DNA of 51,542 nt. It comes from a virus. Its lineage: Duplodnaviria > Caudoviricetes. The translations under genes were made by a program, and so were the position numbers. The notes beneath the pieces are model-generated. The model saw nothing but the letters and a program-made list of their open reading frames with translations. It made no database searches and was not told where the DNA came from. Of the stretch, positions 87-33,376 are shown piece by piece. How positions within the stretch are numbered: the first letter of the stretch is position 1; the number at the start of each line of letters is the position of its first letter. Where the stretch lies: positions 1 through 51,542 of IMG/VR virus record IMGVR_UViG_3300036773_000035. One strand, written 5' to 3'.

Positions 87-290
87 ATGGCCAATGAACA
101 GCACGACCGAGCGACCTTTGCCCCTGACGGGGCTGAGCTGGTCGCACTCCGCACACTGGTGGCTGGCATGTACGACGCCATGCTGCAGGAGGCACAGGCT
201 GCACACCACGTGGCACTGTACCACCGCCTCGCCACGTTCCACGACCTCCGCACCTCCTTGCGAACCGGAGGTGCCGCCGGTGGCGCGTAG
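87..290 (+). CDS. Hypothetical protein (MANEQHDRATF...)
   Basis: ATG at the predicted transcription start; overlaps the next gene start. Confidence 0.65.
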   Translation: MANEQHDRATFAPDGAELVALRTLVAGMYDAMLQEAQAAHHVALYHRLATFHDLRTSLRTGGAAGGA

Positions 291-5925: not shown

Positions 5926-7215
5926 ATGAGCAAAGACACGGCGCGGTTGTCGTCAACGCCGCACCCATTGGGCTCGAAGCCCTTGTACAACACGCCGGGT
6001 CTGTCGTTGCCGCCGTACATCCAGAACATCGCGAACGCCTTGATGAAGCAGGAGGGGTTCGAGAAGGCACGAGCGATCGCGACTGCCATCTCGCGCTGCC
6101 GTGTGTGGGCATCGGGCGGCGGTGGTGTGAGTCCGGCAGTCAAAGCCGCGGCTGCTAAGGCAATCGCACAGCTGGACCTGGCACGAGCGAAGGCGAAGGC
6201 TACTCCCAACAAGGGCGAGGGTAACGCTTCTAAGGCGGGGATGCCCTCTTTTAGCTTGGCGTACGAGTATGCGCAGTCGCTGGACTTGCTCCTTGCGATC
6301 CGCCACGTTCGTACGCCTGCTGGAGAGCGGTTTTACAAGAAGCCGATCGGTTCTCTGATCGTGACGGACAAGCTGGGTCAGGCGAAGAAGGTGTTGGCCA
6401 AGGACAGCACGTTCACGATCGGTGGCAAGCAGCACAGGCTGGTCGGTGTCACACCCGATGGTGAGAAGGTGAAACTCCAGAATCAGGAGTCCGGCAAGAC
6501 GATCACGATGGATCCGGACCAGCTTCCAGGGTCGAAGGTGTCCAACTACCGAGCAGCTTCGGACCTGAAGGTCGGTACGAAGATGCGTCGTGAGCGTGCT
6601 GCGGCGATGCGGAACGCGGGAGTCAAGCCGACACCGAAGGCTCCGACGGAGCCGACAGTGCAGCAGCCGAAGTCGTACCAGAAGGGAACTGGTCGCAACC
6701 GGGACAAGATCGACACGGACCTGTACTCCGCACTCGAGTCAAAGGGGATGTTCACGGACGCTGAGCGAGAGTACATCTCGCTGTACGGAGCTTCCGGGTA
6801 CAAGCCTCTGAACAAGACACTGCGGAGTAAGTCGCCGGACGGAATGCAAGCACAGGCTAGCATGGACTTCACGTACCAGGAGTTCGCTGACGGGTTGCTG
6901 TCCGCGATGGAGAAGCGTGCGACAACGCGGGACATGGTGACGTTCCGCGGGGTCGGCTACAAAGCTGCAGACCTCAACAACGTCAAGTTGGGAGACACGA
7001 TCCACGACGCGGGGTTCATGTCAACGTCGCTGGATGCGGAAGTCTCCTCTCACAGCTTCGGCAAGGTCGGGAAGCTGCTCCAGATCACCATTCCGAAGGG
7101 TACCCCAGCACTACGCCCTTCGGATTGGGAGGCAGAGATCCTTTTGGGTCCGGGAACGAACCTGAAGGTCGTGAAGGTTGGACAGAGGTACATCGAGGTG
7201 GTGGTAGTTGAATGA
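5926..7215 (+). CDS. Head-module protein with C-terminal ADP-ribosyltransferase (VIP2/C3-like, R-S-E clade)
   Basis: GYKPLNKTLR, TFRG, FMSTS and WEAEILL (ExE) motifs. Confidence 0.85.
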   Translation: MSKDTARLSSTPHPLGSKPLYNTPGLSLPPYIQNIANALMKQEGFEKARAIATAISRCRVWASGGGGVSPAVKAAAAKAIAQLDLARAKAKATPNKGEGNASKAGMPSFSLAYEYAQSLDLLLAIRHVRTPAGERFYKKPIGSLIVTDKLGQAKKVLAKDSTFTIGGKQHRLVGVTPDGEKVKLQNQESGKTITMDPDQLPGSKVSNYRAASDLKVGTKMRRERAAAMRNAGVKPTPKAPTEPTVQQPKSYQKGTGRNRDKIDTDLYSALESKGMFTDAEREYISLYGASGYKPLNKTLRSKSPDGMQAQASMDFTYQEFADGLLSAMEKRATTRDMVTFRGVGYKAADLNNVKLGDTIHDAGFMSTSLDAEVSSHSFGKVGKLLQITIPKGTPALRPSDWEAEILLGPGTNLKVVKVGQRYIEVVVVE

Positions 7216-7457: not shown

Positions 7458-8477
7458 ATGACCGACACCACTGTGATGATCAGCCCGAGGTTCGAAGAGG
7501 ACGTAATCGAGCTGGGGAACAACACCTTCAAGCGCAAGGTGCTCCCGAAGGGTACGATCACGTACAAGGGTCAGAAGGTGACCTTCAACGACAAGTTCCT
7601 CGACAACGTGGTGACGTCGTTCAAGGCCAACCCGTTCGACCAGACGTCGTTCATGCTGGCGGACAGTGACAACAAGCACACGCTCGACCCCAAGCAGTGG
7701 GGTGGAGAGGTGACCGGGCTGGAGAAGCAGGCTGACGGCCTGTGGGCGTACTTCAACCTGGCGAACGACGCCGCGGAGCTCATCCGCAAGAACAAGAAGA
7801 TGGGCGTCAGCTGCGGCATCAAGGTGAACTACGCCGATGCCAAGTCCGGCAAGGTGTACCCTGCGGCACTGCACCACGTGCTGGGTACGCTGGACGCCAA
7901 GGTGACCGGCATGGGTGAGTGGCAGGAGGTGACCCTCTCCAACGAAGGCGAGATCCTCCAGGACCTCTCCGACACGAAGTGGGTGACGACCACTCCTCCT
8001 GTGCGGAAGCCGGGAACGAAGGTGCAGCCGACCCAGCAGCAGCTGGACGACGCTGCGTACGCGATCGCGCTGTCGCTCGCGAACGACGATGAGGGAGGTG
8101 ACAACGTGGACGACGCGAAGGACAAGGGTGTGACGCAAGCTGGTCCGGATCTGACCCTCGCGAACGAGCGGATCGGTGCTCTCGAGATCGAGCTGGCGAA
8201 CGCTCGCTTCGACCGTGAGGCGAAGGACCTGATCGACGCGGGTGTGCCACCGGCGCTCATCAAGCTGGCGGAGCCGGTTCTCCGGCTGCCGCAGCCGCCA
8301 GTAATCGAGCTGGCCAACAACGAGGACAACGTCGAGGTGGCGGAAGTCATCCGGGCGATCCTCAACGAGTCCAAGGGCCTTCTCAAGCTCGCGAACGAAC
8401 AGGGTAACTCCGGTGACGGTGGGGACCCCGACGAGCAGTACGAGGCCAAGATCCTCAAGCAGTGGAAGGTGGGCTGA
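7458..8477 (+). CDS. Capsid maturation protease/scaffold (Mu I-like)
   Basis: GGAGGTG RBS; lies before decoration and capsid genes; N-terminal protease-like region and helical C-terminus. Confidence 0.75.
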   Translation: MTDTTVMISPRFEEDVIELGNNTFKRKVLPKGTITYKGQKVTFNDKFLDNVVTSFKANPFDQTSFMLADSDNKHTLDPKQWGGEVTGLEKQADGLWAYFNLANDAAELIRKNKKMGVSCGIKVNYADAKSGKVYPAALHHVLGTLDAKVTGMGEWQEVTLSNEGEILQDLSDTKWVTTTPPVRKPGTKVQPTQQQLDDAAYAIALSLANDDEGGDNVDDAKDKGVTQAGPDLTLANERIGALEIELANARFDREAKDLIDAGVPPALIKLAEPVLRLPQPPVIELANNEDNVEVAEVIRAILNESKGLLKLANEQGNSGDGGDPDEQYEAKILKQWKVG

Positions 8478-8480
8478 CGC

Positions 8481-8903
8481 ATGGCTGGTGCAGTTCCTCT
8501 CTACACGACTGACTCGCAGACCTTCGAGGTCAGCGCGGCGGTCACTGGTGGGCAGTTGGTTGTACCCACCACGGGTGGCAAGATCGGCCCAGCCGGTCTG
8601 ACCGCCAACACCGTGATCGGTGTCGCGCGTAAGGATGCTATCCCGACGGCGACGAACCAGAACCCGACGGGTTCGATCATGCTCTCGCCGGTGTCGCAGT
8701 ACACGGCGGTGGCTGCTCACGGTACCTGGAGTTTGAAGGCCGCAGCCGCGATCACCTTCGGGCAGACGGTCAAGGCCGGTGCCACTGGTCAGGTAGCGGT
8801 GTGGGTGTCCGGGACGGATGCGGCTGACACGATCGTCGGTCGTTGCGTCGAACCGCTCGGGATCGCGAGTGGCGCTTTCGGCGCCATCCGCCTGAACCTC
8901 TAG
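8481..8903 (+). CDS. Capsid decoration/cement protein
   Basis: 140 aa Gly/Ala/Val-rich, VIGVA motif, immediately before the major capsid gene. Confidence 0.65.
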   Translation: MAGAVPLYTTDSQTFEVSAAVTGGQLVVPTTGGKIGPAGLTANTVIGVARKDAIPTATNQNPTGSIMLSPVSQYTAVAAHGTWSLKAAAAITFGQTVKAGATGQVAVWVSGTDAADTIVGRCVEPLGIASGAFGAIRLNL

Positions 8904-8919
8904 GAAGGAGGGGTAGCAC

Positions 8920-9876
8920 ATGGCACTCGTGCCGATCATCGCTGCGGGCGATGGACAGCGGATCACGGTCAACTCGCTCGTCAAGTCGCCGCTGATCATC
9001 CCCCGCAAGATCCTCTCCCTGATGGAGAACCAGTTCATCGTGGACTCGGTGCTTCGTCCGGGCGGGAACACGCCTTCGGGTGTGGTCCAGTACAACGAGA
9101 GCACGCCGCTCTTCCTCGACAGCGGGTCCGGTATCCGCGAGGAGTACGGCGAGTACCGCATTGGTACGGGGTCGGACGGTCAGCTGTCCGTCGTCGTGAC
9201 GACCGACCGCGGTCTCTCGATCGTGGTGTCCGACACGGAACGGCGTCGGAACAGCCTGGACATCATCAACCTGCGGATGACGCAGGCGCGGAACACGCTC
9301 CTTCGGGACTGGGACCTCGCGTTCCAGGCGTCGTTGCTGGGCAACGCCAGCATCCCGACGTACGCTGCGGGTAGCGCTGACGGTGTGACGTCGACCTCCG
9401 CGTACTGGGACCTGCCCACGACGGGTCTGCCGCGACACGACATCATCCGTGCGAAGTACACGGTCAAGCAGGCGATCTACAGTGCGCAGGCGAACAACTG
9501 GTTCGCGTTCCAGCCGGACACGATGGTGATCTCGTCCGACACTGCGGAAGCGATGCTGTTCTCGAACGACCTCAATGCGCAGCTGGCGCCGCAGGGTCCG
9601 TTGGCAACCGAGAACCTGCTGTACACCGGCAAGCTGCCGAACAAGATCCTTGACCTCGACGTTCTGGTGTCGCGTACGTGGCCCAACGACAAGGTCCTGA
9701 TCTGCGAGCGGAACACTCTCGGCTTCATCGCCGACGAGATGCCTCTCCAGGCGACGCCGATGTACCGCAAGGAGGAGAACAAGTACTGGCGGACGGACAT
9801 CAACCGTCAGTCCGCTCTCGGGATCGACCAGCCGCTCGCCGGGTGCATCATCACCGGCGTGAACGACGCGCCCTGA
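8920..9876 (+). CDS. Major capsid protein
   Basis: Strong RBS; 318 aa; PDTMVI and C-terminal DQPLA typical of HK97-fold capsids; synteny. Confidence 0.85.
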   Translation: MALVPIIAAGDGQRITVNSLVKSPLIIPRKILSLMENQFIVDSVLRPGGNTPSGVVQYNESTPLFLDSGSGIREEYGEYRIGTGSDGQLSVVVTTDRGLSIVVSDTERRRNSLDIINLRMTQARNTLLRDWDLAFQASLLGNASIPTYAAGSADGVTSTSAYWDLPTTGLPRHDIIRAKYTVKQAIYSAQANNWFAFQPDTMVISSDTAEAMLFSNDLNAQLAPQGPLATENLLYTGKLPNKILDLDVLVSRTWPNDKVLICERNTLGFIADEMPLQATPMYRKEENKYWRTDINRQSALGIDQPLAGCIITGVNDAP

Positions 9877-12586: not shown

Positions 12587-13039
12587 ATGACCGGATTCGA
12601 CGCGGGTGAAGTCGTTGCTCCACTGGACTACGACTTCACCACGATCAAGCAGCTCCGCTCGGAAACGCGGGAGAAGCTGCAGAACGCGAAGGGCACCATC
12701 CCGGAGCCGTCGGACAAGCAGATCCAGAGTCTGATCAGGGCGCAACGCAAGGCCCTGACGGACGCAGGGATCAACCTGGACGAGTTGGACCCCGAGGATG
12801 CCACCACGCTGATCAAGGTGGCCTCCAAGCTGACGGAGGAGCAGCAGTCGGAGGTCTCGCAGCGTGTGCTGCAGGCCGTGGTGTCCGTCTGTGACGGTTC
12901 ACCGACCGAAGAGGAGATCACCGCACTGCCGCAGCGGGTCCAGAACGCGTTCATCGCCTGGCTGATGAAGTCGTTGACTGACCCGGAATCCGCGGCCGGC
13001 GCTACGAAGCCCTCACTGGCGGTCGTGCGCGCCGGCTAA
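12587..13039 (+). CDS. Tail assembly chaperone (G-like)
   Basis: Between major tail and tape measure genes; AAGGAGG RBS. Confidence 0.8.
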   Translation: MTGFDAGEVVAPLDYDFTTIKQLRSETREKLQNAKGTIPEPSDKQIQSLIRAQRKALTDAGINLDELDPEDATTLIKVASKLTEEQQSEVSQRVLQAVVSVCDGSPTEEEITALPQRVQNAFIAWLMKSLTDPESAAGATKPSLAVVRAG

Positions 13040-13281
13040 CGTACTACATGGCGCGTAGGCACTTAGGGATGTCCGTGATGCAGTGGGACTCCTTGGTGTG
13101 GTACGAGCAGCTTCTCTTGATGGATGGACTCCTGACGGAGTTCAGCAAGGGAGAGGAACAGTACGATTCCGGGCCTGCACCTGTGCGAAGCACCGGTGAG
13201 CTCTGGGATGACCCAGACGACGATCCGGAGGATGCGGATATGCTCGGAGAGTTCGGGATCCAGGTGAGAGAGGCGGGGTGA
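12982..13281 (+). CDS. Tail assembly chaperone extension (T-like), probably reached by a -1 frameshift
   Basis: -1 frame open from 12982 (CCCGGAA) to 13281; ATG 13048 has no RBS. Confidence 0.6.
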   Translation, partial: PGIRGRRYEALTGGRARRLTYYMARRHLGMSVMQWDSLVWYEQLLLMDGLLTEFSKGEEQYDSGPAPVRSTGELWDDPDDDPEDADMLGEFGIQVREAG

Positions 13282-13282
13282 C

Positions 13283-16200
13283 GTGGCGTTTGATGCCGGA
13301 GCGATTGAATCACAGCTGACGCTGGATCGCACAGCCTTCAACGTCGGCCTGGATGCCGCACTTGCGGATGCAGCTGCATTCGAGTCACTTCGCCCGAAGA
13401 TGACGATCGACCTCGACGTGGACGAGGGCAACCTCGCTGCTGCGGAGGCGTTGATCTCGGAGTTGGACGGTCGCAAGGCTACCGTCAACATCGACGCGGA
13501 CATGAACACCGGCGGTGCGGAAGCGCACATGGACGAGTTCATCGCCCGCGAGAGTGCTCGCAAGATCGACGTTGACGTGGATGTCAATTCCGCGGGTGCT
13601 GCGTTGGGTCTCGGCGCACTCGATAGTGCTGCGGGTAGTGCCGGTGGTGGCATGGGTCGGTTGCTGCCCATCATCGGTGCTGTCGCAGTTGCGGTAACTG
13701 CGCTGCCTGCTGCAGTGTTTGCCGGTGCGGGTGCACTAGGCGCACTCGGTGGCGCAGCGTATGGAGTGGTGGGTGCGCTGCAGGCGTATTCTGCACAGCA
13801 GAAGTCTGCAGCGTCTTCCTCAACGCAAGGTGCCGCAACTGCGCTCTCGAACGCAGTTGCACTCCGGAACGCACAGAACGCGATCTCAGACGCGCAGACT
13901 TCGGCTGCACGATCCGCAGCTGACAGCGCTCAGAAGATCCAGGACGCGGAACAGGCTCTCAACAATGCGCTTGCGCAGGAACAGACAGCCCAACAGAACG
14001 TTGCGACTGCTCGACGAGCTGCTCAGGCAGAGCTCTCCTCTCTCGCAGACCAGACGCGAGACGCAGCCCTCACGATGGAGGGTGCTCAGCTCTCGGTTGA
14101 GAAGGCGCAGAACGCGCTAACCGCTGCGATGATCAATGCGAACCCGGCGTCGTTGCAGGTTCGTGATGCGCAGTACCAGTTGGCGCTCGCTCAGCAGCGT
14201 GCGAAGGAAGCAACGCAGGCCAACGCACAGACGCAGGAGGATGCGAACGCGAAGCTCGCAGCCGGGGTTGAGGGTTCTTCTCAGGTTGTCGCTGCGAAGA
14301 ACCAGGAGGCTGCAGCCAGCCAGCGGGTGCAAGACGCACAGGAGAGCTTAGCGAAGGCTCAGGAGCAGTCTCTCCGATCGCAGGAGGACTCCAGTCTGAG
14401 GTTGCAGCGTGCGATCCAAGCTCTCGCTGACACGCAGGCACAGCAGGCAGCCAGTGCGACATCCGCAGCTGCGAAGAACAACCAGTTCGCGGACGCGATG
14501 GCGAAGCTGTCACCGACTGCGCAGGAGTTCGTCCGACAGCTGATCGCGATGAAACCGCTGTTCACGGACTTCACGCACTCGGTGCAGGAAGCGACACTGC
14601 CCGGGTTCATCGACATGCTCCACGGGATCGGTTCCGCTGCGCCGGCGATCACAGCTGGCATGATCCCTGCCGGACAGGCCATCTCGAGCATCGCGACGAG
14701 CTTCGGGACGCTGATGGCGAACCCGGCATTCCAGGGTCAGCTGACCGCCGCGTTGCAGAACTCCGTGCCGATCATCACGTCTCTGGGGAACGGGTTCGTA
14801 GGACTGTTCCAGAGCATGACGCAGTTCGCTGCAGCTACACCTGCACTGACTGCGGGCTTGGGTGGCGGACTCACCGCAGTGTTCCAAGGGCTACAGCAGT
14901 TCTTCACGGTGCTGATCCCCTACGGTCCAGCACTCGGTGCACTGTTCCAAGGCATCGGTGGTGTGGTGCAGGCAATCCTGCCGATCATCGGACAGCTAGT
15001 GGGGTTGTTCGCTACCGCACTTGGACCGGCACTCAACGCGCTTGCTCCGGTGATTGCACAGGTGGGTCAGGTCCTGGCTAGTTCGCTGTCGCCGATCATC
15101 GCAGCGTTGGCTCCGATCCTGGTGCAGCTCGCACCGATCTTGGGTCAGATCGCTACGCTGTTCATCCAACTGGCTGCACCCATCATCAGCGCGGTCATGC
15201 CAGTGATCCAGGCGCTGCTACCGGTGCTAGGAACGGTCACGACAGCACTGCAACCGTTGATCCCGATTGTGACACAGCTCGCGAACATGATCAGCGCTGC
15301 ACTGGTGCAGTCGATCAACGCACTGGCTCCAGTCCTGCCACCGTTGATCGCTCTCGGTGTGCAGCTGCTGCAAGCACTCATGCCGCTGGTGCCACCGATC
15401 CTGCAGCTAGCGACGAACCTGTTCCCGATCCTCGCACAGATCCTCACGGGTGCGTTGATCCCGGTGCTCTCGTCGCTCATCGGTGCACTCGCTCCGATCC
15501 TGCCTGTCATCGGGCAACTGATCAACGCGTTGTCCGCAGTGTTGATGCCAGTCATCCAGGCACTCGCACCGTTGATCAGTTCCGTGTTCGGTGCGCTGAT
15601 GCCGATCATCCAGCCGGTCATCAACATCATCGTGAGCCTGCTGAACATCGTGATCGGCATCATCACTGGTGACTGGACGAAGGCGTGGAACGGTATCAAG
15701 GGTGTCGTCGGTGGGATCATTGACTTCATCAAGGGCGTGCCGAAGGCGATCTACGACACGGTTATGGCCGGGCTACAGTTCATCCTCAACATCGGCCGGG
15801 ACATCATCGGCGGGATCGTGCGCGGGTTGGAGAATGCCGTCGGTGCGATCTGGGACTGGTTGAGCGGGATGCTAGACCGGTTCTGGAAGGGCATTAAGAA
15901 CTTCTTCGGGTTCGGCTCTCCCTCGAGGCTGATGGCACAAGCTGGCCAGTGGATCGGTCAGGGGTTGGTGCGCGGGTTGGTCGATGCCACTCCCGCGATC
16001 ATGGCAGCAGCAGACAACGCATCGCAGGCTGCGGTGATCACGCCAACGTACGGAGCGCTGACTGGGTCGCCACAGATCCCGAACGCCTTCCAGACACCTG
16101 GCGGATCACAGGTTGGGATCGGACCGAACGGCCTCCCTGTGCAACCAGGTACACCGACGATCGGCGGAGTGCCGGTACCGGACTTCGTGGACGCACTCGC

Positions 16201-24613: not shown

Positions 24614-24985
24614 ATGAAGGTATTCGGGAGAGAGCCCGCTACGTGGATCGCACTGTTCGCGAGTCTGCTCGAGCTGCTGTCGGGCTACTTCATCCACTGG
24701 AGTGCCGGCACGCAGGGCATCGTCATCGCGGTCATCACTGCGGCGTTCGGTCTGTGGACGGCGTTCCACCTGCCGGACTGGCGCGACAAGGTCCTGCCGG
24801 CGATCCTCGGTTTCGCGCAGGCCATCTTCGCGCTGTTCCTGGCATTCGGCGCTGACGTGCCTGCGAGCGTACAGGGTCAGTGGATGGCCGTCATCACGGT
24901 CGTGGTCGGTCTGTTCGTGCGTACGCAGGTGACGGCACCGGTACAGGACCCGAAGGCGGTTGCACCGGTACCGCCTGCTGCCTAA
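24614..24985 (+). CDS. Holin (about 4 TM)
   Basis: AGGAGG RBS; MKVFGREPA...RTQVTAP is typical of actinophage holins. Confidence 0.75.
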   Translation: MKVFGREPATWIALFASLLELLSGYFIHWSAGTQGIVIAVITAAFGLWTAFHLPDWRDKVLPAILGFAQAIFALFLAFGADVPASVQGQWMAVITVVVGLFVRTQVTAPVQDPKAVAPVPPAA

Positions 24986-27567
24986 GCTGCAACTGGCTCG
25001 ACGTACGGTTGCACGTCCCCGAGCGTGGGACCGTACTCCACATCGACGAACAGCTTGATGTGAGTCTCGTACGGCGGTGTGGTCATCTCCTCCTTGATGA
25101 CCGCAATCGCCTCATGCAGTCGGTCCTCCGGCACCTCGAAGACCAACGAGTCGTGCACCGTGAACAGCACGTCTCCGAGGCCCGCAGCAGGGAGACGCTT
25201 GTTCAAGCGGATCAGTGCGCTGAGACAGGTGTCGGAGGCAAGGCTCTGAATCGGGAAGTTGACTGCCTGGTTCTTGATGTGGTTGACCTTGTCCGGCGTG
25301 ATCAACCGCCATCGACGCACACGACCGAGCGGTGTCCGTAGCTCACCGACCGTGAGTGCATCTCGCTGCCACTGGTTGTACACCTCTTGGTACTTCGGGT
25401 ATAGTGCCCAGAAGCGGTCGATGTACTGCTGCGCTAACTGCTCACTGCCACCGGTCAGAGCCTTCAGCTCTCCCTGTGCGAGTGAGTACGCCTGTCGGCC
25501 GTAGGCGATCCCGAAGGTCACGAACTTGCTGTTGAAGCGCAGGTCGCCTGCTTCCTGCTTGTTCGCAGGGTCGGTCATCCACGCGTACGACTTGTTAAAC
25601 ACCGCCGCAGCTGTCGCTGTGTGGAAGTCCTGCTCCGTCAGTGCACGTCCGAGGTTCTCGTCCCCGCTGTAGTGCCAGGCGATGAACAGCTCGAGGTTCT
25701 TGTAGTCGACGTCGACGATAACGTGCCCGGGTCGCGCCTTGAACATCCGGCGAACCATCTTCGCCATCTTCGGGTTGACGCCCCACTTAGGTAGCGTCTG
25801 CAGTGGTGGGTTCCGGATCGACAGTCGTCCGGTGATCGTTCCGAACAGCAGGAAGTCCGGATGCACGCGACCGTCGGGACCTACATCGTCACCGATCCCG
25901 CGGATGTAGTTGCGCAGCAGGTGATCCCGCTCGCGGATGTTCCGCAGCAGCTTCGTGAAGTCTGACGTCTCGTTGTATGCGAGGAACACCTCTTCCGTTG
26001 ACCGCTTCCGCTCCGGGTGCTTCATCTTCAGGATGTCGAACGCGAGATGCTGCAGCTGCTTCGAACTACGGACGTTCAACCGCTCGTCTGGTACCAGCTT
26101 GAACCGACGCTTCATGCAGCCGGTGCAACTCGGGTCGTGACTGAAGCGAGTCTCGAACTCCTTCCGCCACAGCTTACGGTCCTTCTCGACGAAGTCGACG
26201 TCGTTAGAGCACACTGGGCAAGGGATCTCCTTGACCTGCGCACCGACGAACGACTGCTCCAGTGGGAACCCCTTCGACGCAGCCCAGTCCTGCATCGTGC
26301 GTTCGGCTTCCTCGATGATCGGAAGCCACTCGTCCTCGAGCTTGGCCGCGTACTCCATGTCGATGCCAGAGCCACGGAACTCGAGGTCCGCGAACGCGTC
26401 CGTCGCATCCGTCAACAGGCCTTTGCACAGGGGCATCGTGCCTTCCGCTTCGACCAGGGGCGGTAGGAGGTCGCAGAGGTGGAAGGTGTAGTACACGTCC
26501 TGGCAGCCGTACTTGGCAAGGTCCCGCCAGTGACCTTCATGCTGTGGACCCTTCGTCCAGCTGTAGTCACCGAGGTCCTCGTAGTACCCAGCGTTTAGGT
26601 ACGTGCGCGAGAGGACCTTCAGGCCAACCTGCTCACCGCGTTCCGTGAGACCGAGACCGAGCACCATCGAGTCTCGTACGATCTTCGGACTGCGGAACCG
26701 ACCCGCTCGGATCACCTGTCGGTCGTACGCACTATTGTGCATCCGCCAGATGACGCCGTTCTTGTCGAACAGCTTCTGGAGCGCTTCGCGGAACGGGCGG
26801 AGGTGCAGCATCGCTGGCATGTTGAAGGCCCACGCCTGGTCTCCACCAGCGTAGAACTGCGACATGATCCACTCGTCGTCCAGTGGTCGCGGTCCGGTGC
26901 TGTACTTGGTCTTCGACTCCGTGTCGAACGCGATCTTCGTCGCACTCGCGTACAGGTGGTTGAGGACCTTGATCGCTTCCGCCGGGTCGTCAACGTAGTG
27001 CCAGTCCAGCTTGAAGTTTCGGTCCGGGAACGGGATCTCACCGCGCGTGAGCTGCAGTGCACGCTTCGTGGTGTCGTAGATGTCGTCGAAGTAGCCCGTG
27101 TTGCCGTGGAGCACCGCAGCGGGGTGGTAGGTCGCGATGACCCACGTTCCCAGCTCCTCGTTCCACCGCATGGCACCCTGCGTCTTCGTGATTCCGTCTG
27201 TGGTGTTCAGCAGGACCTGTGACGCGGTACCACCGACTGCGAGGACCACCTTCGGCTTGCGTGCCTTGACCTCGTCAACCAGACGGTCGTGACAGGCTGC
27301 GAGTGCCGCTTTCGATGGTGGTGTGTCCTTGCCGTCCTTGTCGACGGGCGGTCGACACATCGTGGCGTTGGTGACGTAGGTCCAAGCTCGACTGCCACCC
27401 AGATCAGCCAGAGTCGCGTCCAGCAACTTGCCCGACGGCCCAGTGAACGGAGTACCCGCCTGGATCTCCTGTCTGCCCGGTGCTTCCCCCACGATAACGA
27501 GGTCTGCCTGATCTGGACCAACGCCCTTGCAGGCTGGCCCGGAGAGTGGACACCCATCACAGCTCAC
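24982..27567 (-). CDS. Family A DNA polymerase with N-terminal family-4 uracil-DNA glycosylase-like domain (SPO1-type architecture)
   Basis: UDG motifs CxxC, GEAPG, CRPP, YHPAA; exonuclease FDTE, HNSAYD, YGCQD; polymerase TGRLS, DYKNLE, K...FGIAYG, HDS. Confidence 0.93.
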   Translation of the reverse strand: MSCDGCPLSGPACKGVGPDQADLVIVGEAPGRQEIQAGTPFTGPSGKLLDATLADLGGSRAWTYVTNATMCRPPVDKDGKDTPPSKAALAACHDRLVDEVKARKPKVVLAVGGTASQVLLNTTDGITKTQGAMRWNEELGTWVIATYHPAAVLHGNTGYFDDIYDTTKRALQLTRGEIPFPDRNFKLDWHYVDDPAEAIKVLNHLYASATKIAFDTESKTKYSTGPRPLDDEWIMSQFYAGGDQAWAFNMPAMLHLRPFREALQKLFDKNGVIWRMHNSAYDRQVIRAGRFRSPKIVRDSMVLGLGLTERGEQVGLKVLSRTYLNAGYYEDLGDYSWTKGPQHEGHWRDLAKYGCQDVYYTFHLCDLLPPLVEAEGTMPLCKGLLTDATDAFADLEFRGSGIDMEYAAKLEDEWLPIIEEAERTMQDWAASKGFPLEQSFVGAQVKEIPCPVCSNDVDFVEKDRKLWRKEFETRFSHDPSCTGCMKRRFKLVPDERLNVRSSKQLQHLAFDILKMKHPERKRSTEEVFLAYNETSDFTKLLRNIRERDHLLRNYIRGIGDDVGPDGRVHPDFLLFGTITGRLSIRNPPLQTLPKWGVNPKMAKMVRRMFKARPGHVIVDVDYKNLELFIAWHYSGDENLGRALTEQDFHTATAAAVFNKSYAWMTDPANKQEAGDLRFNSKFVTFGIAYGRQAYSLAQGELKALTGGSEQLAQQYIDRFWALYPKYQEVYNQWQRDALTVGELRTPLGRVRRWRLITPDKVNHIKNQAVNFPIQSLASDTCLSALIRLNKRLPAAGLGDVLFTVHDSLVFEVPEDRLHEAIAVIKEEMTTPPYETHIKLFVDVEYGPTLGDVQPYVEPVAA

Positions 27568-28259
27568 TTGCTCTCCTTCTTGAACAGCGGGTTGACGGCG
27601 AACGGCATCTCCGGTCGTGACGCAGGACCTGCCATCGTCTGCGGTGCCGGGTCGGGGTTCACCACAACGACGTTCGGGTACACCTTCTCGAAGCCTTGCA
27701 GAAGCCTCTCCGCAGCATTCCTCCGCATGACCTTCTCCTTCCCGAAGTACTCCGCGACGAGCTTGTGGAGCAGATCATCTCCCGGGCATTCGCACCAGGT
27801 GTAACACCAGGCCCGAACTGGTTCGCCGTTGTCCGCAGTTTCGTACGCGTGCTCGGACACCATGTGGATGCAGTCACCGCACTGAAGGTCTACCGGTTTC
27901 TGGTCTGCATTATCATGCTGACCCGGTACCGATCCTGACGTAGACGACGAATTAGCCGGTGTTTCTCGGGCTGTTTCTGCCAGATACATCGCGTAAGTCA
28001 AGACCGCATAGACTGCGAGGTCTTTGTACGTGTCCTCCACCGTTTCGTTCTGCGGTGCACGACCATTGTACCGCAACGCCTTCAGTCGCTCCAGCTTCTG
28101 GACCATGTTGAACTCCGCAGCCTCGTACGTGGCGAGGTTGAACTGCTCACCGGTACGCCGGAAGTTCGAGAACGGGTCGTGGTCGAGCTGGTAGTCGTCA
28201 CCCTTCTGCTGCTGCGTCGTAGCGATACGGTTCATCGCCTCATGGAACCAGTCGGTCAT
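27564..28259 (-). CDS. Nucleotide-modification-associated all-alpha pyrophosphatase-like protein (DUF1599/Nmad1-like) with C-terminal extension
   Basis: KGDDY...DPFSNF...KLERL...ETVEDTYKDLAVYA; GGAG RBS before ATG 28259. Confidence 0.7.
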   Translation of the reverse strand: MTDWFHEAMNRIATTQQQKGDDYQLDHDPFSNFRRTGEQFNLATYEAAEFNMVQKLERLKALRYNGRAPQNETVEDTYKDLAVYAVLTYAMYLAETARETPANSSSTSGSVPGQHDNADQKPVDLQCGDCIHMVSEHAYETADNGEPVRAWCYTWCECPGDDLLHKLVAEYFGKEKVMRRNAAERLLQGFEKVYPNVVVVNPDPAPQTMAGPASRPEMPFAVNPLFKKESK

Positions 28260-28294
28260 GCCTGCTCCTGTGCGGTAGGGGTGTTGACGCCAAA

Positions 28295-28316
28295 CGGCCA
28301 CTCCGGAGAGTGGCCG
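28295..28316 (-). terminator. Perfect 9-bp hairpin in the leader of the Nmad1-like/polymerase transcript
   Basis: CGGCCACTC-TCCG-GAGTGGCCG followed by TTT. Confidence 0.5.
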
Positions 28317-28334
28317 CTCAGCTCGCTCTATTCA

Positions 28335-28364
28335 ATTATAGGTGAAACCCACGTGGTCCATCAA
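28335..28364 (-). promoter_or_regulatory. Sigma-A-type promoter
   Basis: TTGATG-18 bp-TATAAT. Confidence 0.75.
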
Positions 28365-29800
28365 GCGGATTCGATCGCGTATTTCGTCGGGTCCTCGACT
28401 CCGGCCATCTTGAACGCGCGCTGACGCATGACGCAGGGTCCGCAGTCTCCGCAGTGGATCCCTTCCGTGTTCGCCTTGTAGCACGACCACGTAAAGTCGA
28501 AGGGCATGAAGCCCGGAAGCTGCGATCCGAAGGTGACGATCTCGTGCTTCATCATCCCACCGAGCGGATCACTGATCTCTAACTGGTGATACGGCTTGAC
28601 CGCGTACGGAGCGAGGTCTCGCAGCTTGTTGATGAACTCCTGCTCGTTGTCCGGGTACCCGCCGCAACTCTCCTCCTGGTTGGAGCCGAGTGCGATGCAG
28701 TCGTAGCCGTGTGCCTCCGCGTACGCGAACGCTAGTGCCATCATTACCGTGTTGCGTGCGGGAACCCACTCGTGAGCGTACTCCGCACCTGCGACACCCT
28801 TCGCAACCTCTCGGGTGTCGTCCGTCAGCGAACTCGTCGCGTGCAGCGAGAAGAAGTTGGTCTCGAGCATCGCGACTGGCACATCGTCGAGTGGGACGTT
28901 CAACTCTGCAGCGATGCGGTACTGCAGATTCTGGATCGCCCGCACCTCGTTCGGCTCCGCTTTGGCGTTGTACCGCAGGTGTAGCAGTGTGACATCGTCA
29001 CCCTTGCGGATTGCGTGGTACCACGCGACTACGCCACTGTCGAGACCGCCACTGCACACCACCAGCGTCTTCTTCCTGCCCGTTCGCACAGGGTAGAGTG
29101 TGCCCAACCGCTGGTGGTAGCCACCGTTGATGGACCCGTACGTGTACGGCTCGATCTGGTGGGGCTGCACCGTGCTCAGGAAGTCGTCGCTGGATACCGG
29201 TTCCAGGTACTTCCGCTGTGACGCGAAGAGTACCGTCTGCGAACCTGCGTCGCCGAGGACCCATAGCGGCTTGTAGTTGCACGCGTAGTAGACCTTGCTG
29301 GGCTCCTCGCTGCGGTACGCGAGGATCGCGAACGACCCCTTCAGCTTCCGGAGACCCACCTCGAACCCGAAGCGATCGAACACCATCGCGATGACCCACG
29401 TGTCGACGTGTGTGGGTGAGACCTGTGAGCTGGTTGCTTCCATCTCCCGAATGAGGTCCTTGTCGTTCGCGATCGTCCCGTTGTGGACTACCGTCCACTG
29501 ACCAACGGTGAACGGCTGGATGTCCTTGTCCGCGGTCTCGCCGTTCCACTCCGTAGTCGGTTCACCGCGTAGGCACCCGAGCAGGATCCCTTGAGAGAAC
29601 GCTCCGAGTTCGTCCCACTCGATCTCGTTCGGCGGATCGTTGTAGCCGCTGTCCGCAACCTGGTACGGGTCCTCCAGGTCCTCCGGTGCGAAGAACAACC
29701 CGAACGCGTCGTGACCGCGCTCCTGACTGAGCGTGAAGAGCGTCTTGATCTCCTGCTGGTCCGTCTGTGGACCGACGTACCCTCCGATGATGCTACACAC
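28361..29800 (-). CDS. gat-queC: Glutamine amidotransferase (Ntn type)-QueC fusion
   Basis: GTG start gives MCSIIG with N-terminal Cys; RGHD and HNG; QueC motifs SGGLDS, VPARN, YPD, TWSCY...HCGDCGPC..R. Confidence 0.92.
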   Translation of the reverse strand: MCSIIGGYVGPQTDQQEIKTLFTLSQERGHDAFGLFFAPEDLEDPYQVADSGYNDPPNEIEWDELGAFSQGILLGCLRGEPTTEWNGETADKDIQPFTVGQWTVVHNGTIANDKDLIREMEATSSQVSPTHVDTWVIAMVFDRFGFEVGLRKLKGSFAILAYRSEEPSKVYYACNYKPLWVLGDAGSQTVLFASQRKYLEPVSSDDFLSTVQPHQIEPYTYGSINGGYHQRLGTLYPVRTGRKKTLVVCSGGLDSGVVAWYHAIRKGDDVTLLHLRYNAKAEPNEVRAIQNLQYRIAAELNVPLDDVPVAMLETNFFSLHATSSLTDDTREVAKGVAGAEYAHEWVPARNTVMMALAFAYAEAHGYDCIALGSNQEESCGGYPDNEQEFINKLRDLAPYAVKPYHQLEISDPLGGMMKHEIVTFGSQLPGFMPFDFTWSCYKANTEGIHCGDCGPCVMRQRAFKMAGVEDPTKYAIESA

Positions 29801-30116
29801 GCTTCTGCTCCTCCTCCGATCCGGACGTGCGGTTCTGCACCGTCGCCCACTTGGTCTGCACCAGCGTCTCGAGGTCGTACCCGAACACCGCGCAGACGTG
29901 GCACAGCTTGATGAACACGTCGGGCAGCTCGTCCAGGATCGCGTTCTCCCACATCGTGTAGTTTCCGCGCACACCCTGGTTCTGCTTGAGCACCGCGCGT
30001 GCGAGCTCGCCGACCTCCTCCACGAGACCGAGCACCAGGTCTGCACGCGTGTCTCCGGGGAAGTTCTTCACTGCCCACGCACCGATCTCGCACTGCAGTT
30101 CGTTGATCTCAGCCAT
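29793..30116 (-). CDS. mazG: MazG-like nucleotide pyrophosphohydrolase
   Basis: LVEEVGELA...DELPDV. Confidence 0.85.
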   Translation of the reverse strand: MAEINELQCEIGAWAVKNFPGDTRADLVLGLVEEVGELARAVLKQNQGVRGNYTMWENAILDELPDVFIKLCHVCAVFGYDLETLVQTKWATVQNRTSGSEEEQKRV

Positions 30117-30891
30117 GGAGATACTCCCTCCAACGTCGGATGTTCGTACGGGTGATCGATACAGCCTCTTCGCTGCAGTTGGCGTAGTCGAAGTACTCGT
30201 TGCGACCACCGAGCGACTTGCGACCGGGGTACAGCGGCACAGGCACACCCGGCATGATCGACTTCGGGTTCACGGTGATGCCGTTGAGACCCCAGACGAC
30301 GAACTTCGCGGTGTCGCAGGAGCGTACCCGGGCTCGTGTCGCTTCGTCCTGCAGTTCCGCCAGGTCCTCCGTGACGCCGAGGAAGTGGATGTCGTTGCCG
30401 TAGAACTCCGTGATGGCCTCGACCACGATCGGTCGCGGCAGGTTGTACAGCTGCTCGACCTCCTCGATGATCCCGATGGTCGCGTACGGGAGAGCGAGCA
30501 CTAACTCCTCGAGGCAGTACAGGTACTCGTGCCAGGTCTTGCCGTGGGGCACGACCATGAACGCTCCGTCGTACCCGTGTTCGCGGAGCTCCCGAGCGGC
30601 GTTGGTGGATCGCGCAACCGTCTCCTTGGAGTCCTGGAACCGGTCCGGAAGCACGATCTCCGACGGCTTGACGACGTGGAGGGCTTCGACCAGCGTCTCG
30701 ATGGTCGTATCCTGCCCCTCGAATGCTGCGGTGTCCATCGTCAGCCAGTGACCCATGTCCACGCGGCTCTGGTAGAACCGAGCGTACTCCCTGTGCGACA
30801 CGATCACGTCCGCAACGCACAGGTGGTGAGTCTCCTCAACGGGGATGACGCGCTTCGCGAGCTTGGACGGCGGGATGTGGAACAGTCTCAA
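30109..30891 (-). CDS. TGT-fold guanine transglycosylase-like protein (DpdA-like)
   Basis: MDTAAFE (resembles DSGAF), VLPD, VPHG, IHFLG, RSCDT; inside the que cluster; TTG start after GAGAGGTG. Confidence 0.7.
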   Translation of the reverse strand: MRLFHIPPSKLAKRVIPVEETHHLCVADVIVSHREYARFYQSRVDMGHWLTMDTAAFEGQDTTIETLVEALHVVKPSEIVLPDRFQDSKETVARSTNAARELREHGYDGAFMVVPHGKTWHEYLYCLEELVLALPYATIGIIEEVEQLYNLPRPIVVEAITEFYGNDIHFLGVTEDLAELQDEATRARVRSCDTAKFVVWGLNGITVNPKSIMPGVPVPLYPGRKSLGGRNEYFDYANCSEEAVSITRTNIRRWREYLHG

Positions 30892-30901
30892 TGTGCACCT
30901 C

Positions 30902-31252
30902 TCAGAACGAGTGGACGATGTAGATGAGCGCATAGATGCTGGCCACGACGCCAACGATGAACACGCACGTTAGGGTGCCCGCAACAGACCACCACGTGAT
31001 GCGCTGAGCGAGCTGGATGTGCCGGATGTGTTGCCGCGCGCGCTTGTACAGTTCCACGCGCAGGTGCGTGCGCTCGTCGCCCTCGGTCTCGAACGTGTGA
31101 CGGAGCATCTCTTCGATCTCCTCGTTCGAAGGCTGCCCCTCCGGTTCGAGGTCTCCGTGCGCGTCTCCGACCGTGAGGTCCTCCGGCTGGTATAGCGGGA
31201 TCTGTTGGGTATCCTCGTCCTCGTTCTCCGGGTCGAGTCTGTGGCTAGACAC
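30902..31252 (-). CDS. Membrane protein with acidic N-terminus
   Basis: GGAGG RBS; C-terminal TM helix. Confidence 0.65.
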   Translation of the reverse strand: MSSHRLDPENEDEDTQQIPLYQPEDLTVGDAHGDLEPEGQPSNEEIEEMLRHTFETEGDERTHLRVELYKRARQHIRHIQLAQRITWWSVAGTLTCVFIVGVVASIYALIYIVHSF

Positions 31253-31253
31253 A

Positions 31254-31364
31254 CTAACCTCCGATGCCGAACACAGCGGCCACCGTACCGATGAAGGTAC
31301 TGATGACCGCTGCGTACGTCAGTAGCTGGGTGTGGAACGGGAGTGTCACGAAGTACTTGAGCAT
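31254..31364 (-). CDS. 36-aa membrane peptide, leaderless (not in ORF track)
   Basis: MLKYFVTLPFHTQLLTYAAVISTFIGTVAAVFGIGG; ATG 6 nt after TATACT. Confidence 0.55.
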   Translation of the reverse strand: MLKYFVTLPFHTQLLTYAAVISTFIGTVAAVFGIGG

Positions 31365-31370
31365 ACGTCA

Positions 31371-31400
31371 AGTATATGTGAACTTCCCGAGAGAAACTAG
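31371..31400 (-). promoter_or_regulatory. Promoter with good -10 and weak -35
   Basis: CACATATACT context shared with other promoters in this genome. Confidence 0.55.
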
Positions 31401-32035
31401 GGGCGGCGCATGAGGGCCAGAAACTCGTGTCGAGCGTCGGCCTCCTCCCGGAACACGCCCCGGACCGAAGACGTCATCGTGCCAGCGTTCGGTTCCTCGA
31501 CTCCACGATGGCTCATGCAGCCGTGTACTGCGTCGATGACGACCATCGCACCCTTCGGCTGCAGGTGAGTCTCCAGCGCGTCAGCGATCTGGTCCGTCAC
31601 CCGCTCCTGCAGCGTGTACTGCTTCGCGAAGTGGTGCGTGATGCGTGCGAGCTTCGAGAGGCCGCACACGCGCTCGTTCGGCAGGTACCCGACCCACGCG
31701 TTGCCGTACACAGGCAGCATGTGGTGGGCGCACATCGACTTGACCGTGATGGGTCCGACCTGGACGAGGCTGTCGTACGCGTCATCAAACGACACCTCGA
31801 GCAAGCCGGCGACCTTCTCCGGACTCGCGTTCTTCGCGAACTCCATCAACACCTTCGCAGCACGTTCCGGAGTGCGCTTGAAGTGCTGGTCCTGGAGGTC
31901 GTAGCCCAGCTGCCGGATGATGGTCGATAGGCAATCCCGGATTACGCCCTGGACGTACTCCCGGTCGTCTCCGTTCGGCATCAAGCGGTGCTCGTCCTGA
32001 CCCGGCAGGTCGATCATGTTGTTCGTGTGGTGCAT
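31397..32035 (-). CDS. folE: GTP cyclohydrolase I
   Basis: TPER, SMCAHHMLP, GLSKLAR, LQER, HGCMSHRG. Confidence 0.95.
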   Translation of the reverse strand: MHHTNNMIDLPGQDEHRLMPNGDDREYVQGVIRDCLSTIIRQLGYDLQDQHFKRTPERAAKVLMEFAKNASPEKVAGLLEVSFDDAYDSLVQVGPITVKSMCAHHMLPVYGNAWVGYLPNERVCGLSKLARITHHFAKQYTLQERVTDQIADALETHLQPKGAMVVIDAVHGCMSHRGVEEPNAGTMTSSVRGVFREEADARHEFLALMRRP

Positions 32036-32196
32036 CAAAGTTTCCCCTCGAGTGCCGTGATCAGTTCCTCGTGCGCGTGTCCGTCGACTCCATACTCGTC
32101 CGCTTCCGCACACAACACTTCGGCTTCCTCCTGCGTGAGAACGATGACGATCCCCTCACTGCTGAGGTCAGCGTTCAGCTGCTTTCGGACCTCCAT
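32035..32196 (-). CDS. Hypothetical protein
   Basis: Translationally coupled on both sides. Confidence 0.55.
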   Translation of the reverse strand: MEVRKQLNADLSSEGIVIVLTQEEAEVLCAEADEYGVDGHAHEELITALEGKL

Positions 32197-32927
32197 CAGC
32201 GTGCCCTCTCGTTCCCGTACAGCAGGATGTGCTGGCGGAGGGTGAAGTTCCACCCGTGTGCCAGCGCGTGCTTCGCGACGATCTGACCTCGGTCGAGCAC
32301 CGTTACCATGTCGATCCCCTCCGGCATAAGCCAGGTTCGGTTAGGTGGGATCTGGATCAGGTCCACGATGTGCTCGATCTCCGCAACGTCCTCATCGGAC
32401 GTCACCACGAACTTGAAGTCCGCACCCAGCATGTTGAACTCGTCGAGGACCTCCGGCTTGAACCGACGGTCGATCGGGTTCCCGCTGTTCGACAGCTTCG
32501 GACTTACTGTCCACTGTACGCTCGGGGCGTTGCACAAGCCTGGTCGGAGCGTCCCGGCAGTCTCGAACGCAACCTCGAACCCGTCACGCAGGAGGTTGGC
32601 GACCAGCGGTCCCAGTGTGGCCTGCTGCATCAGAGGCTCGCCGCCGCTCACGACGACCAAACCACCACGTGGCAAGAAGCCACGCAACTTCTCCTGCACC
32701 TCTTCGACCGACATCCGGGACAGCTCCACCTTCGGGTCGTACGCTGTCTGCTCGATGTGGAGCTTCGCCTTGCGGGTGTCGAAGAACACCGCGTGTGGTG
32801 TGTCGCAGAAGCCGCATGCTAGGTTGCACCCTCCGAGTCGGACGAACGCTGCGAGCTGTCCGGTCTGTCTGCCCTCGCCCTGCCAGACAGGTCCGAACAC
32901 CTCGTTCACCAGTAACCCAGCTGTCAT
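32196..32927 (-). CDS. queE: 7-carboxy-7-deazaguanine synthase (radical SAM)
   Basis: QGEG, FVRLGGCNLACGFCDT, SGGEP, ETAG, SPK. Confidence 0.95.
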   Translation of the reverse strand: MTAGLLVNEVFGPVWQGEGRQTGQLAAFVRLGGCNLACGFCDTPHAVFFDTRKAKLHIEQTAYDPKVELSRMSVEEVQEKLRGFLPRGGLVVVSGGEPLMQQATLGPLVANLLRDGFEVAFETAGTLRPGLCNAPSVQWTVSPKLSNSGNPIDRRFKPEVLDEFNMLGADFKFVVTSDEDVAEIEHIVDLIQIPPNRTWLMPEGIDMVTVLDRGQIVAKHALAHGWNFTLRQHILLYGNERAR

Positions 32928-33376
32928 CGCACCCACGTCCAGGTCGCTCCGTTGGTACCGGTCTCGTCGACACGCACACTCGCGTACTCGACGCTGAACG
33001 CGCTGATCGTCCACTCACCGATCCACTGCGAGATGTGCTCGATGGTTGGGTCACCCGCGGTCCGCACCAATCCTGGGTAGTACGCTTCCGGGTTCATCAC
33101 CGAGTCGATCAACGAGTCCGCTGCGTTCATCAGCAACCGGTGGTCGAACTCCGTGTCGATGTAGCCACGTACCTTCTGCTTCACCAGTCCGAAGTCCAGT
33201 GGACCGTACTTGTCCTCCGCGATCCCGTTCCCGTTGACCCGCACACCGAGCTCGACTTCGATGTGCAGCGAGTGACCATGGATCTGCTGGCACTTGCCAG
33301 GCAGTAACGACAGCCGGTGGGCGATCTCCGCGTTGTGCTTCACGAAGATCGCCCGCTCGGAGTTGCCTGCACTCAC
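32924..33376 (-). CDS. queD: 6-carboxytetrahydropterin synthase
   Basis: AHRL, KCQQIHGH, LDFG, FDH, PTIE. Confidence 0.93.
   Translation of the reverse strand: MSAGNSERAIFVKHNAEIAHRLSLLPGKCQQIHGHSLHIEVELGVRVNGNGIAEDKYGPLDFGLVKQKVRGYIDTEFDHRLLMNAADSLIDSVMNPEAYYPGLVRTAGDPTIEHISQWIGEWTISAFSVEYASVRVDETGTNGATWTWVR

Follow-up and report, generated by a model that had tools for sequence, protein, structure and literature searches.

Does the guanine transglycosylase of a phage swap its base on free nucleotides before replication, or on DNA? The question is raised by a gene block in a Caudoviricetes virus, IMG/VR record IMGVR_UViG_3300036773_000035 (G000). The whole record of 51,542 bp was analysed and is called the window here; it is estimated to be 83% complete, has about 61% G+C, and G makes up 31% of its bases. 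The block contains the 7-deazaguanine genes queD, queE and folE, a gene with a TGT fold, mazG, gat-queC, an Nmad1/DUF1599-like gene and a DNA polymerase gene. We propose that the TGT-fold enzyme, assigned here to DpdA3, and Gat-QueC replace most G with archaeosine (dG+) by a base swap on free nucleotides before replication. We give this reading slightly less than an even chance.

An earlier, sequence-only reading of this DNA had described the genes as one co-oriented block, and this was confirmed. All eight genes lie on the minus strand. The TGT-fold gene and mazG overlap by 8 nt, mazG and gat-queC by 8 nt, and Nmad1 and the polymerase by 4 nt; the start of queE overlaps queD. The genes and overlaps were thus as described, except that two small open reading frames (ORFs) of 53 and 116 aa interrupt the block. 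As the order queD-queE-folE-DpdA3-(gat)queC-pol was seen again in related viral and metagenome contigs, the block is not due to chance. Its main genes are as follows.

32924..33376, minus strand: queD, 6-carboxytetrahydropterin synthase, 150 aa (Pfam PTPS, E 1e-18; PHROG QueD-like)
32196..32927, minus strand: queE, radical SAM CDG synthase, 243 aa (PHROG QueE-like, E 5e-49; NCBIfam QueE models below cut-off)
31397..32035, minus strand: folE, GTP cyclohydrolase I, 212 aa (TIGR00063, 187.5 bits, cut-off 181.6)
30109..30891, minus strand: guanine transglycosylase assigned to the DpdA3 family, 260 aa (catalytic D53, D83 and D193)
29793..30116, minus strand: predicted MazG-like pyrophosphohydrolase, 107 aa (Pfam, 24.2 bits, cut-off 22)
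28361..29800, minus strand: Gat-QueC, predicted archaeosine synthase, 479 aa (homology to the Gat-QueC of phage 9g)
27564..28259, minus strand: Nmad1/DUF1599-like gene (Pfam, 19.5 bits, E 0.0013, below the cut-off of 25)
24982..27567, minus strand: family-4 UDG, 3'-5' exonuclease and family A DNA polymerase in one protein, 861 aa (Pfam UDG, exo1 and pol_A)

The transglycosylase and the predicted base

Pfam and NCBIfam gave no name to the TGT-fold protein, and a PDB sequence search gave no match. A tblastn search against 50,697 phage records matched six of them. The best match was Weizmannia phage Youna2 (29%, E 4e-13), and five records of the Cellulophaga phiST group matched with 23% (E 4e-8, over 77%). 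The phiST match is CGPG_00065, which has been named as a DpdA3 (PMC10516641). The structure model (pLDDT 94) has a TGT-type (beta/alpha)8 barrel, and TGT and DpdA entries top its PDB lists. The top viral fold match was a 259-aa phiST protein (TM 0.77, E 1e-14), while DpdA1- and DpdA2-type entries ranked lower (TM 0.53–0.58). In hhalign, a profile of 21 homologs aligned over the full length with the DpdA3 of phage 2-6A (gp206; 97%, E 4e-11, 243 columns) and was barely alignable with the DpdA1 of Enterobacteria phage 9g (5.5%, 43 columns).

The sequence-only reading had called for a phylogeny against the DpdA subfamilies. In a quick IQ-TREE analysis of 49 rows, which left out DpdA2, DpdA4 and bacterial DpdA, the protein nested within 44 DpdA3 rows and apart from five DpdA1 rows (SH-aLRT 99). 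D53 and D193 were present in all 44 rows and D83 in 43; by motif order, the three residues pair with Asp95, Asp130 and Asp256 of bacterial DpdA. The nucleophile Asp is followed by 67 residues in the window protein, 50–72 in the 11 DpdA3 rows listed and 102–133 in the five DpdA1 rows. The identity to DpdA3 proteins of isolates is only 23–29%. Judged by profiles, tree and predicted fold, the gene is clearly a DpdA3 and not a DpdA1.

This assignment, which the sequence-only reading had not made, matters for the extent of substitution. All three DpdA3 phages tested in PMC10516641, phiST (dDG), 2-6A (fdPreQ1) and CP220 (dADG), replace every G, and 0.1–30% substitution is given there for DpdA1 phages. 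High-level replacement of G, as put forward by the sequence-only reading, is therefore likely.

FolE, QueD, QueE and QueC make preQ0 from GTP. In the window, QueC is fused to a class II amidotransferase domain (Gat), and the N-terminal Cys2, HNG, SGGLDS and the Zn cysteines are all kept. Over its full length, the protein has 37% tblastn identity and 40% aligned identity to the enzyme of phage 9g, whose DpdA and Gat-QueC put dG+ into E. coli plasmid DNA (PMC6884629). As Gat-QueC is intact, dG+ is the likely base, in line with what had been expected of the cluster. DpdA3 stands beside this intact Gat-QueC, and near-complete substitution of the window genome by dG+ is therefore predicted, with about even odds.

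Among the 26 distinct loci of the DpdA3 subclade of the window, 19 carry a Gat with Cys2 (the pattern flagged 17 of them; the other two, L045 and L057, read MCGL), four have a degenerate Gat with Ser2 and no HNG (L063, L065, L067 and L076), and three have none (L059, L064 and L068). The sister branches with a degenerate or missing Gat probably stop at preQ0 or use other enzymes. These and all later counts of relatives under-sample the reach of the family.

By our count, Supplementary Data S1 of PMC10516641 shows Gat-QueC in phage 9g only and in none of the 31 DpdA3 rows. In isolates, Gat-QueC matched 182 records, of which 66 cover most of the query; among the 60 listed of these 182, none belongs to the DpdA3-bearing phages found here. 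A literature search covering few subscription papers turned up neither a pairing of DpdA3 and Gat-QueC nor an assay of DpdA3 substrates. The DpdA3 and Gat-QueC cluster is real and conserved in an uncultured lineage, and this search did not find it in print.

If dG+ replaced all G, about 31% of bases would be positively charged, compared with up to 27% of Gs carrying dG+ in 9g. Such a charge would matter for how the DNA is packaged, how well it resists nucleases and how polymerases tolerate it. If, in addition, DpdA3 acted on free nucleotides, the window would be the first genome with fully cationic guanine, and the claim that all 7-deazaguanine modification of DNA is post-replicative would be overturned. 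The compact, kinase-free cluster is a clean test case for whether DpdA3 works on nucleotides or on DNA, and it gives DUF1599/Nmad1 a testable function.

Base exchange on nucleotides or on DNA

The favoured pathway would run as follows. FolE, QueD, QueE and the QueC domain would make preQ0 from GTP, and DpdA3 would put the 7-deaza base in place of guanine on dGMP or dGTP. By homology to 9g, G+ would arise when the Gat domain adds ammonia, be it to the base, the nucleotide or the DNA. Nmad1, with MazG as an accessory, would hydrolyse dGTP to dGMP, which drains the normal nucleotide and feeds DpdA3. Because the lineage encodes no nucleoside monophosphate (NMP) kinase, host kinases are proposed to make the triphosphate. 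The UDG-PolA of the phage would then incorporate the modified nucleotide, for which it would need no special selectivity. Evading restriction enzymes is the likely benefit. Taken together, namely essentially every G turned into archaeosine in a probably actinobacterial lineage, DpdA3 acting on free dGMP or dGTP and Nmad1/DUF1599 draining dGTP, the full scheme is rather unlikely. The idea of a pre-replicative route is itself not new: a modified-dGTP route is mentioned in PMC6884629 as proposed for Campylobacter phages.

The Nmad1-like protein is the candidate dGTP pyrophosphohydrolase of the block. It has an all-helical domain (residues 1–100) and a Cys-rich tail, the conserved residues are K19, D22, Y23, K55, R58, E72, D76 and D80, and the model shows four helices (pLDDT 88). 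We take DUF1599 to be a hydrolase family. The protein gave no alignment with PF18909, a dATP/dGTP diphosphohydrolase family, and a homolog search limited to shorter proteins gave none.

Relatives were collected with the polymerase as anchor, and an alignment scan kept 79 loci of 567 relatives; a scan with the single polymerase sequence gave none. Within this polymerase lineage, Pfam DUF1599 was found in 12 of 26 records with DpdA3 and in one of 19 without it (Fisher p 0.003; the records are not independent, many being fragments and some near-identical). The negatives were checked: DpdA3 was in none of the 19, and one of them (G046) has DpdA1. With a wider Nmad1 profile made here, the counts were 16 of 35 and 0 of 22 loci (partly circular). 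Seven of the 26 clade loci were too short to show the polymerase neighbourhood and were dropped. In 16 of the remaining 19, a candidate deoxynucleoside triphosphatase (dNTPase) lies beside the polymerase, Nmad1 in 14 and PF18909 in two (L055 and L048, directly upstream of the polymerase).

Further evidence concerns DpdA3 and its surroundings. The short stretch after its nucleophile lends indirect support to the nucleotide-level route: in bacterial DpdA the same stretch is the 128-residue Ins8, and the equivalent insertion of TGT contacts tRNA (PMC10164549). In addition, a kinase-like gene was found near DpdA3 in all eight isolated phage types examined. It adjoins DpdA3 in six (phiST, BSP7, Youna2, MA9V-3, CP220 and Ahp1) and lies at a distance of three genes in 2-6A and of five in StAshley; the calls for BSP7 and Youna2 rest on a P-loop, a weak Pfam match and the depositors' labels. 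No kinase was recognised beside the three DpdA1 clusters examined, a small control. Free ADG nucleoside has been seen in CP220-infected cells (PMC10516641), and in E. coli the three-gene Z cluster of phage S-2L functions with no kinase from the phage (PMC8342488).

Several results weigh against the nucleotide-level reading. The sequence-only reading had made MazG a core part of it, and this did not hold. The mazG product has the metal-binding motif EExxE...ExxD, as EEVGE and ELPD, and a weak likeness to MazZ (7ODY, E 0.09). MazG is present in only six of 26 clade loci and in none of 13 near-complete records, which ruled it out as a core component, and it also occurs in the DpdA3-negative relative L069. 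In the window, MazG is best read as accessory. A fold search with the Nmad1 model gave no match at E ≤ 0.001, and a PDB profile search gave none below E 1. Three of the 19 clade loci (L057, L059 and L060) have no candidate dNTPase, and a search for three families found none in the complete DpdA3 records G018, G027 and G028 either. PF18909 was above cut-off in eight of 19 DpdA3-negative records; in the four examined it lies beside ThyX, in one of them with MazG too. Such hydrolases may therefore serve dUTP clean-up, and a pyrophosphatase adjoining UDG-PolA is by itself no mark of G replacement.

Kinases and the polymerase point the same way. No NMP-kinase-like gene was found in the window, G002, G007 or G008; a P-loop scan found an NMP-kinase-like ORF in one of 36 DpdA3 loci of the lineage, none of 27 records had DNMK, and none of seven near-complete records had AAA_18. 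What had been called a divergent polymerase is present and proved to be a fusion of family-4 UDG, 3'-5' exonuclease and PolA with intact catalytic motifs. The idea that it is dedicated to the modification was not supported. DpdA3-positive and DpdA3-negative polymerases interleave in a 63-row FastTree, and no position cleanly splits them. The best was S695 (33/41 vs 3/18); R691 (41/41 vs 8/18) and intact UDG motifs are also associated, and none is exclusive. The E-L-F variant of motif A was rejected as modification-specific, being common to a sister clade without que genes (L062, L066, L069, L075 and L078). The NCBIfam DpoZ model scored far below cut-off on the window polymerase. Finally, the authors who defined DpdA3 propose that all such insertion is post-replicative (PMC10516641), and the enzyme activities of the window are predicted ones.

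That published view is the main competitor. DpdA3 would swap nearly every G in the DNA itself while replication runs or shortly afterwards, perhaps at the fork. Gat-QueC would then yield dG+, and the replication module would use MazG and Nmad1 for house-cleaning (dUTP). We regard this as a serious possibility, and the nucleotide-level route is only narrowly favoured over it. The Asp triad of DpdA3 is that of DNA- and tRNA-acting transglycosylases, the lineage has no kinase, a UDG domain is part of the polymerase, and sister polymerases have ThyX and PF18909 modules beside them. In 18 of 35 loci, no more than 200 bp lie between the end of DpdA3 and the start of the polymerase, which has been counted for action on DNA; this closeness fits either route. 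A predicted complex of DpdA3 with polymerase residues 1–735 scored 0.00 and weighs neither way. The short Ins8, the kinases of the isolated phages and an Nmad1 that tracks DpdA3 rather than the polymerase speak against action on DNA. DpdA3 alone also gave no modification in an E. coli plasmid assay in which DpdA1 and DpdA2 members worked (PMC10516641), and complete substitution base by base would be demanding. On balance, the pre-replicative route stays plausible with family-level evidence; MazG as a core part and a dedicated polymerase are not supported. As marks of a nucleotide-level enzyme, net charge and the missing Zn site were rejected, as DpdA1 shares both.

Two other alternatives concern the product. 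Substitution may be high with dPreQ0, dADG or a mixture as the final base, whatever the route. The seven of 26 clade loci with a degenerate or missing Gat imply that the lineage has no need of G+, and the base has been wrongly predicted from gene content before, dCDG being found in STSV-2 and fdPreQ1 in 2-6A (PMC10516641). The window Gat, however, keeps Cys2 and HNG and resembles the dG+-yielding enzyme of 9g, and Pfam and PHROG scans recognised no QueF, DpdL, DpdM or DpdN in the block, so this outcome is improbable. Partial, motif-specific dG+ as in 9g is more improbable still. It would agree with the measured dG+ DNA in the literature found, which is all partial (up to 27% of G in 9g, PMC6884629), with the low identity of the window enzyme to isolate DpdA3s and with the sites of which the window is still short (GCGC, z -4.9; AAGCTT, z -3.4). 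Against it stand the assignment of the enzyme to DpdA3 and the genome signature. The observed/expected ratio (O/E) of G-containing 6-mer palindromes was 0.93 in the window, like the fully substituted phages (0.85–0.97, in 15–19 kb stretches) and unlike 9g (0.63). Avoidance was weaker with DpdA3 than without it: the median O/E was 0.89 in DpdA3-positive (n=30) and 0.83 in DpdA3-negative records (n=16; p 0.005, not independent). The 4-mer palindromes did not differ (p 0.59), which counts against broad replacement. Overall, the palindrome signal gives modest backing to broad protection and has no bearing on the route.

Comparison with known systems

The phages phiST, 2-6A and CP220 (PMC10516641) have the same short transglycosylase family (about 260 aa) with FolE, QueD and QueE. 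MazG lies in the phiST cluster, as in the window, and the polymerase is nearby in phiST and 2-6A. The window differs from them in its Gat-QueC partner, in having no recognised NMP kinase, in Nmad1 beside the polymerase and in its presumably actinobacterial host. Closer in layout are Bacillus phage BSP7/BSTP5, Weizmannia phage Youna2 and Brevundimonas phage StAshley. Their DpdA3 lies directly upstream of a UDG-type PolA, with queC, queD, queE and folE, like in the window; unlike the window, they have a plain QueC without Gat and a kinase-like gene.

Phage 9g (PMC6884629) shares FolE, QueD, QueE and the full-length Gat-QueC with the window. Its transglycosylase is a DpdA1 of 317 aa with a long C-terminal part, which works on E. 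coli plasmid DNA. The purZ-mazZ-datZ cluster of S-2L (PMC8342488) is alike in logic only: a hydrolase turns dGTP into dGMP for a nucleotide-level enzyme, and host kinases finish the pathway. The base and the enzymes are different, mazZ is always co-conserved in the S-2L system as described there, and the window has no DpoZ-type polymerase. The UDG-fused PolA proteins of PMC13697223 (Bacillus phages CP-51 and SPO1) combine UDG, exonuclease and PolA as in the window, with only 24–26% identity to the window polymerase; those that the abstract describes come from T-modified genomes.

Remaining features of the window and its relatives

The window terminase is closest to those of Streptomyces phages (47%), and a GH25 lysin is present. 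An actinobacterial host is inferred from both and is probable. Three further features lie in or next to the gene block.

32035..32196, minus strand: 53-aa ORF between queE and folE, with a 1-nt overlap at each side
30902..31252, minus strand: 116-aa ORF with a hydrophobic C-terminal stretch, an insert that is not in relatives
28364-28335, minus strand: weak promoter-like TTGATG-18-TATAAT ahead of Nmad1-pol

The 53-aa ORF had no NCBIfam match, and its extended frame of 72 aa had no Pfam or PHROG match. The 116-aa ORF gave no tblastn match in loci L001–L016; in L004, the gap between folE and DpdA3 is about 30 bp. The promoter-like pattern may separate Nmad1-pol from the que genes, a weak case: four sites were found, compared with 1.9 ± 1.6 expected in shuffles.

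The module ahead of the polymerase is thus exchangeable: in the sister polymerase clade named above, which has lost its UDG motifs, ThyX and PF18909 take the place of the que cluster. At about residues 445–495 of the window polymerase lies a Cys-rich insertion (CPxC...CxxC), which nine of 12 aligned polymerases have and L010, L015 and L016 lack. In L117, a DpdA1 cluster and a phosphoribosyltransferase adjoin a related UDG-PolA. Phosphoribosyltransferase was rejected as a DpdA3 marker: the lineage loci have none, and the one in L117 adjoins DpdA1.

Several DpdA3 clusters hold other genes. DUF3310 genes lie inside clusters without Nmad1 (L097, L121, L125 and L127) and possibly fill the Nmad1 role. 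Between gat-queC and Nmad1, similar-looking genes were seen in L006 (11495-12109), L007 (10952-11509) and L044 (13720-14232); the one in L007 matches the Pfam pyrimidine-dimer DNA glycosylase. A 250-aa CxxGCxxCC protein, similar to the DpdM methyltransferase motif and with no Pfam match, lies upstream of DpdA3 in L082, L085, L089, L097, L116, L119 and L121. Some of these seven loci also carry a T-fold gene, a QueF candidate, which suggests genomes fully substituted with mdPreQ1. In L059 (3265-7546), DpdA3 is followed by a class III aminotransferase, SurE, DUF5591 (ArcS core) and QueC, and the polymerase is followed by a TylF-type methyltransferase; this is a possible further deazaguanine variant. 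L009 has a 388-aa gene between folE and DpdA3 (8023-9189). L060, a DpdA3 and Gat-QueC relative without Nmad1, has a glycosyltransferase and an FkbM methyltransferase after the polymerase (12749-14874).

Elsewhere in the window, a 429-aa ORF of the head region (5926-7215, plus strand) ends in an ADP-ribosyltransferase domain (Pfam ADPrib_exo_Tox, E 5e-18) and may be an enzyme that the virion delivers to act on the bacterial host. An FtsK/SpoIIIE-type ATPase fused to a GIY-YIG nuclease (94-1953, plus strand) lies directly upstream of the terminase. The window and several close relatives show a 2.5-fold over-representation of 4-mer palindromes made of A and T only.

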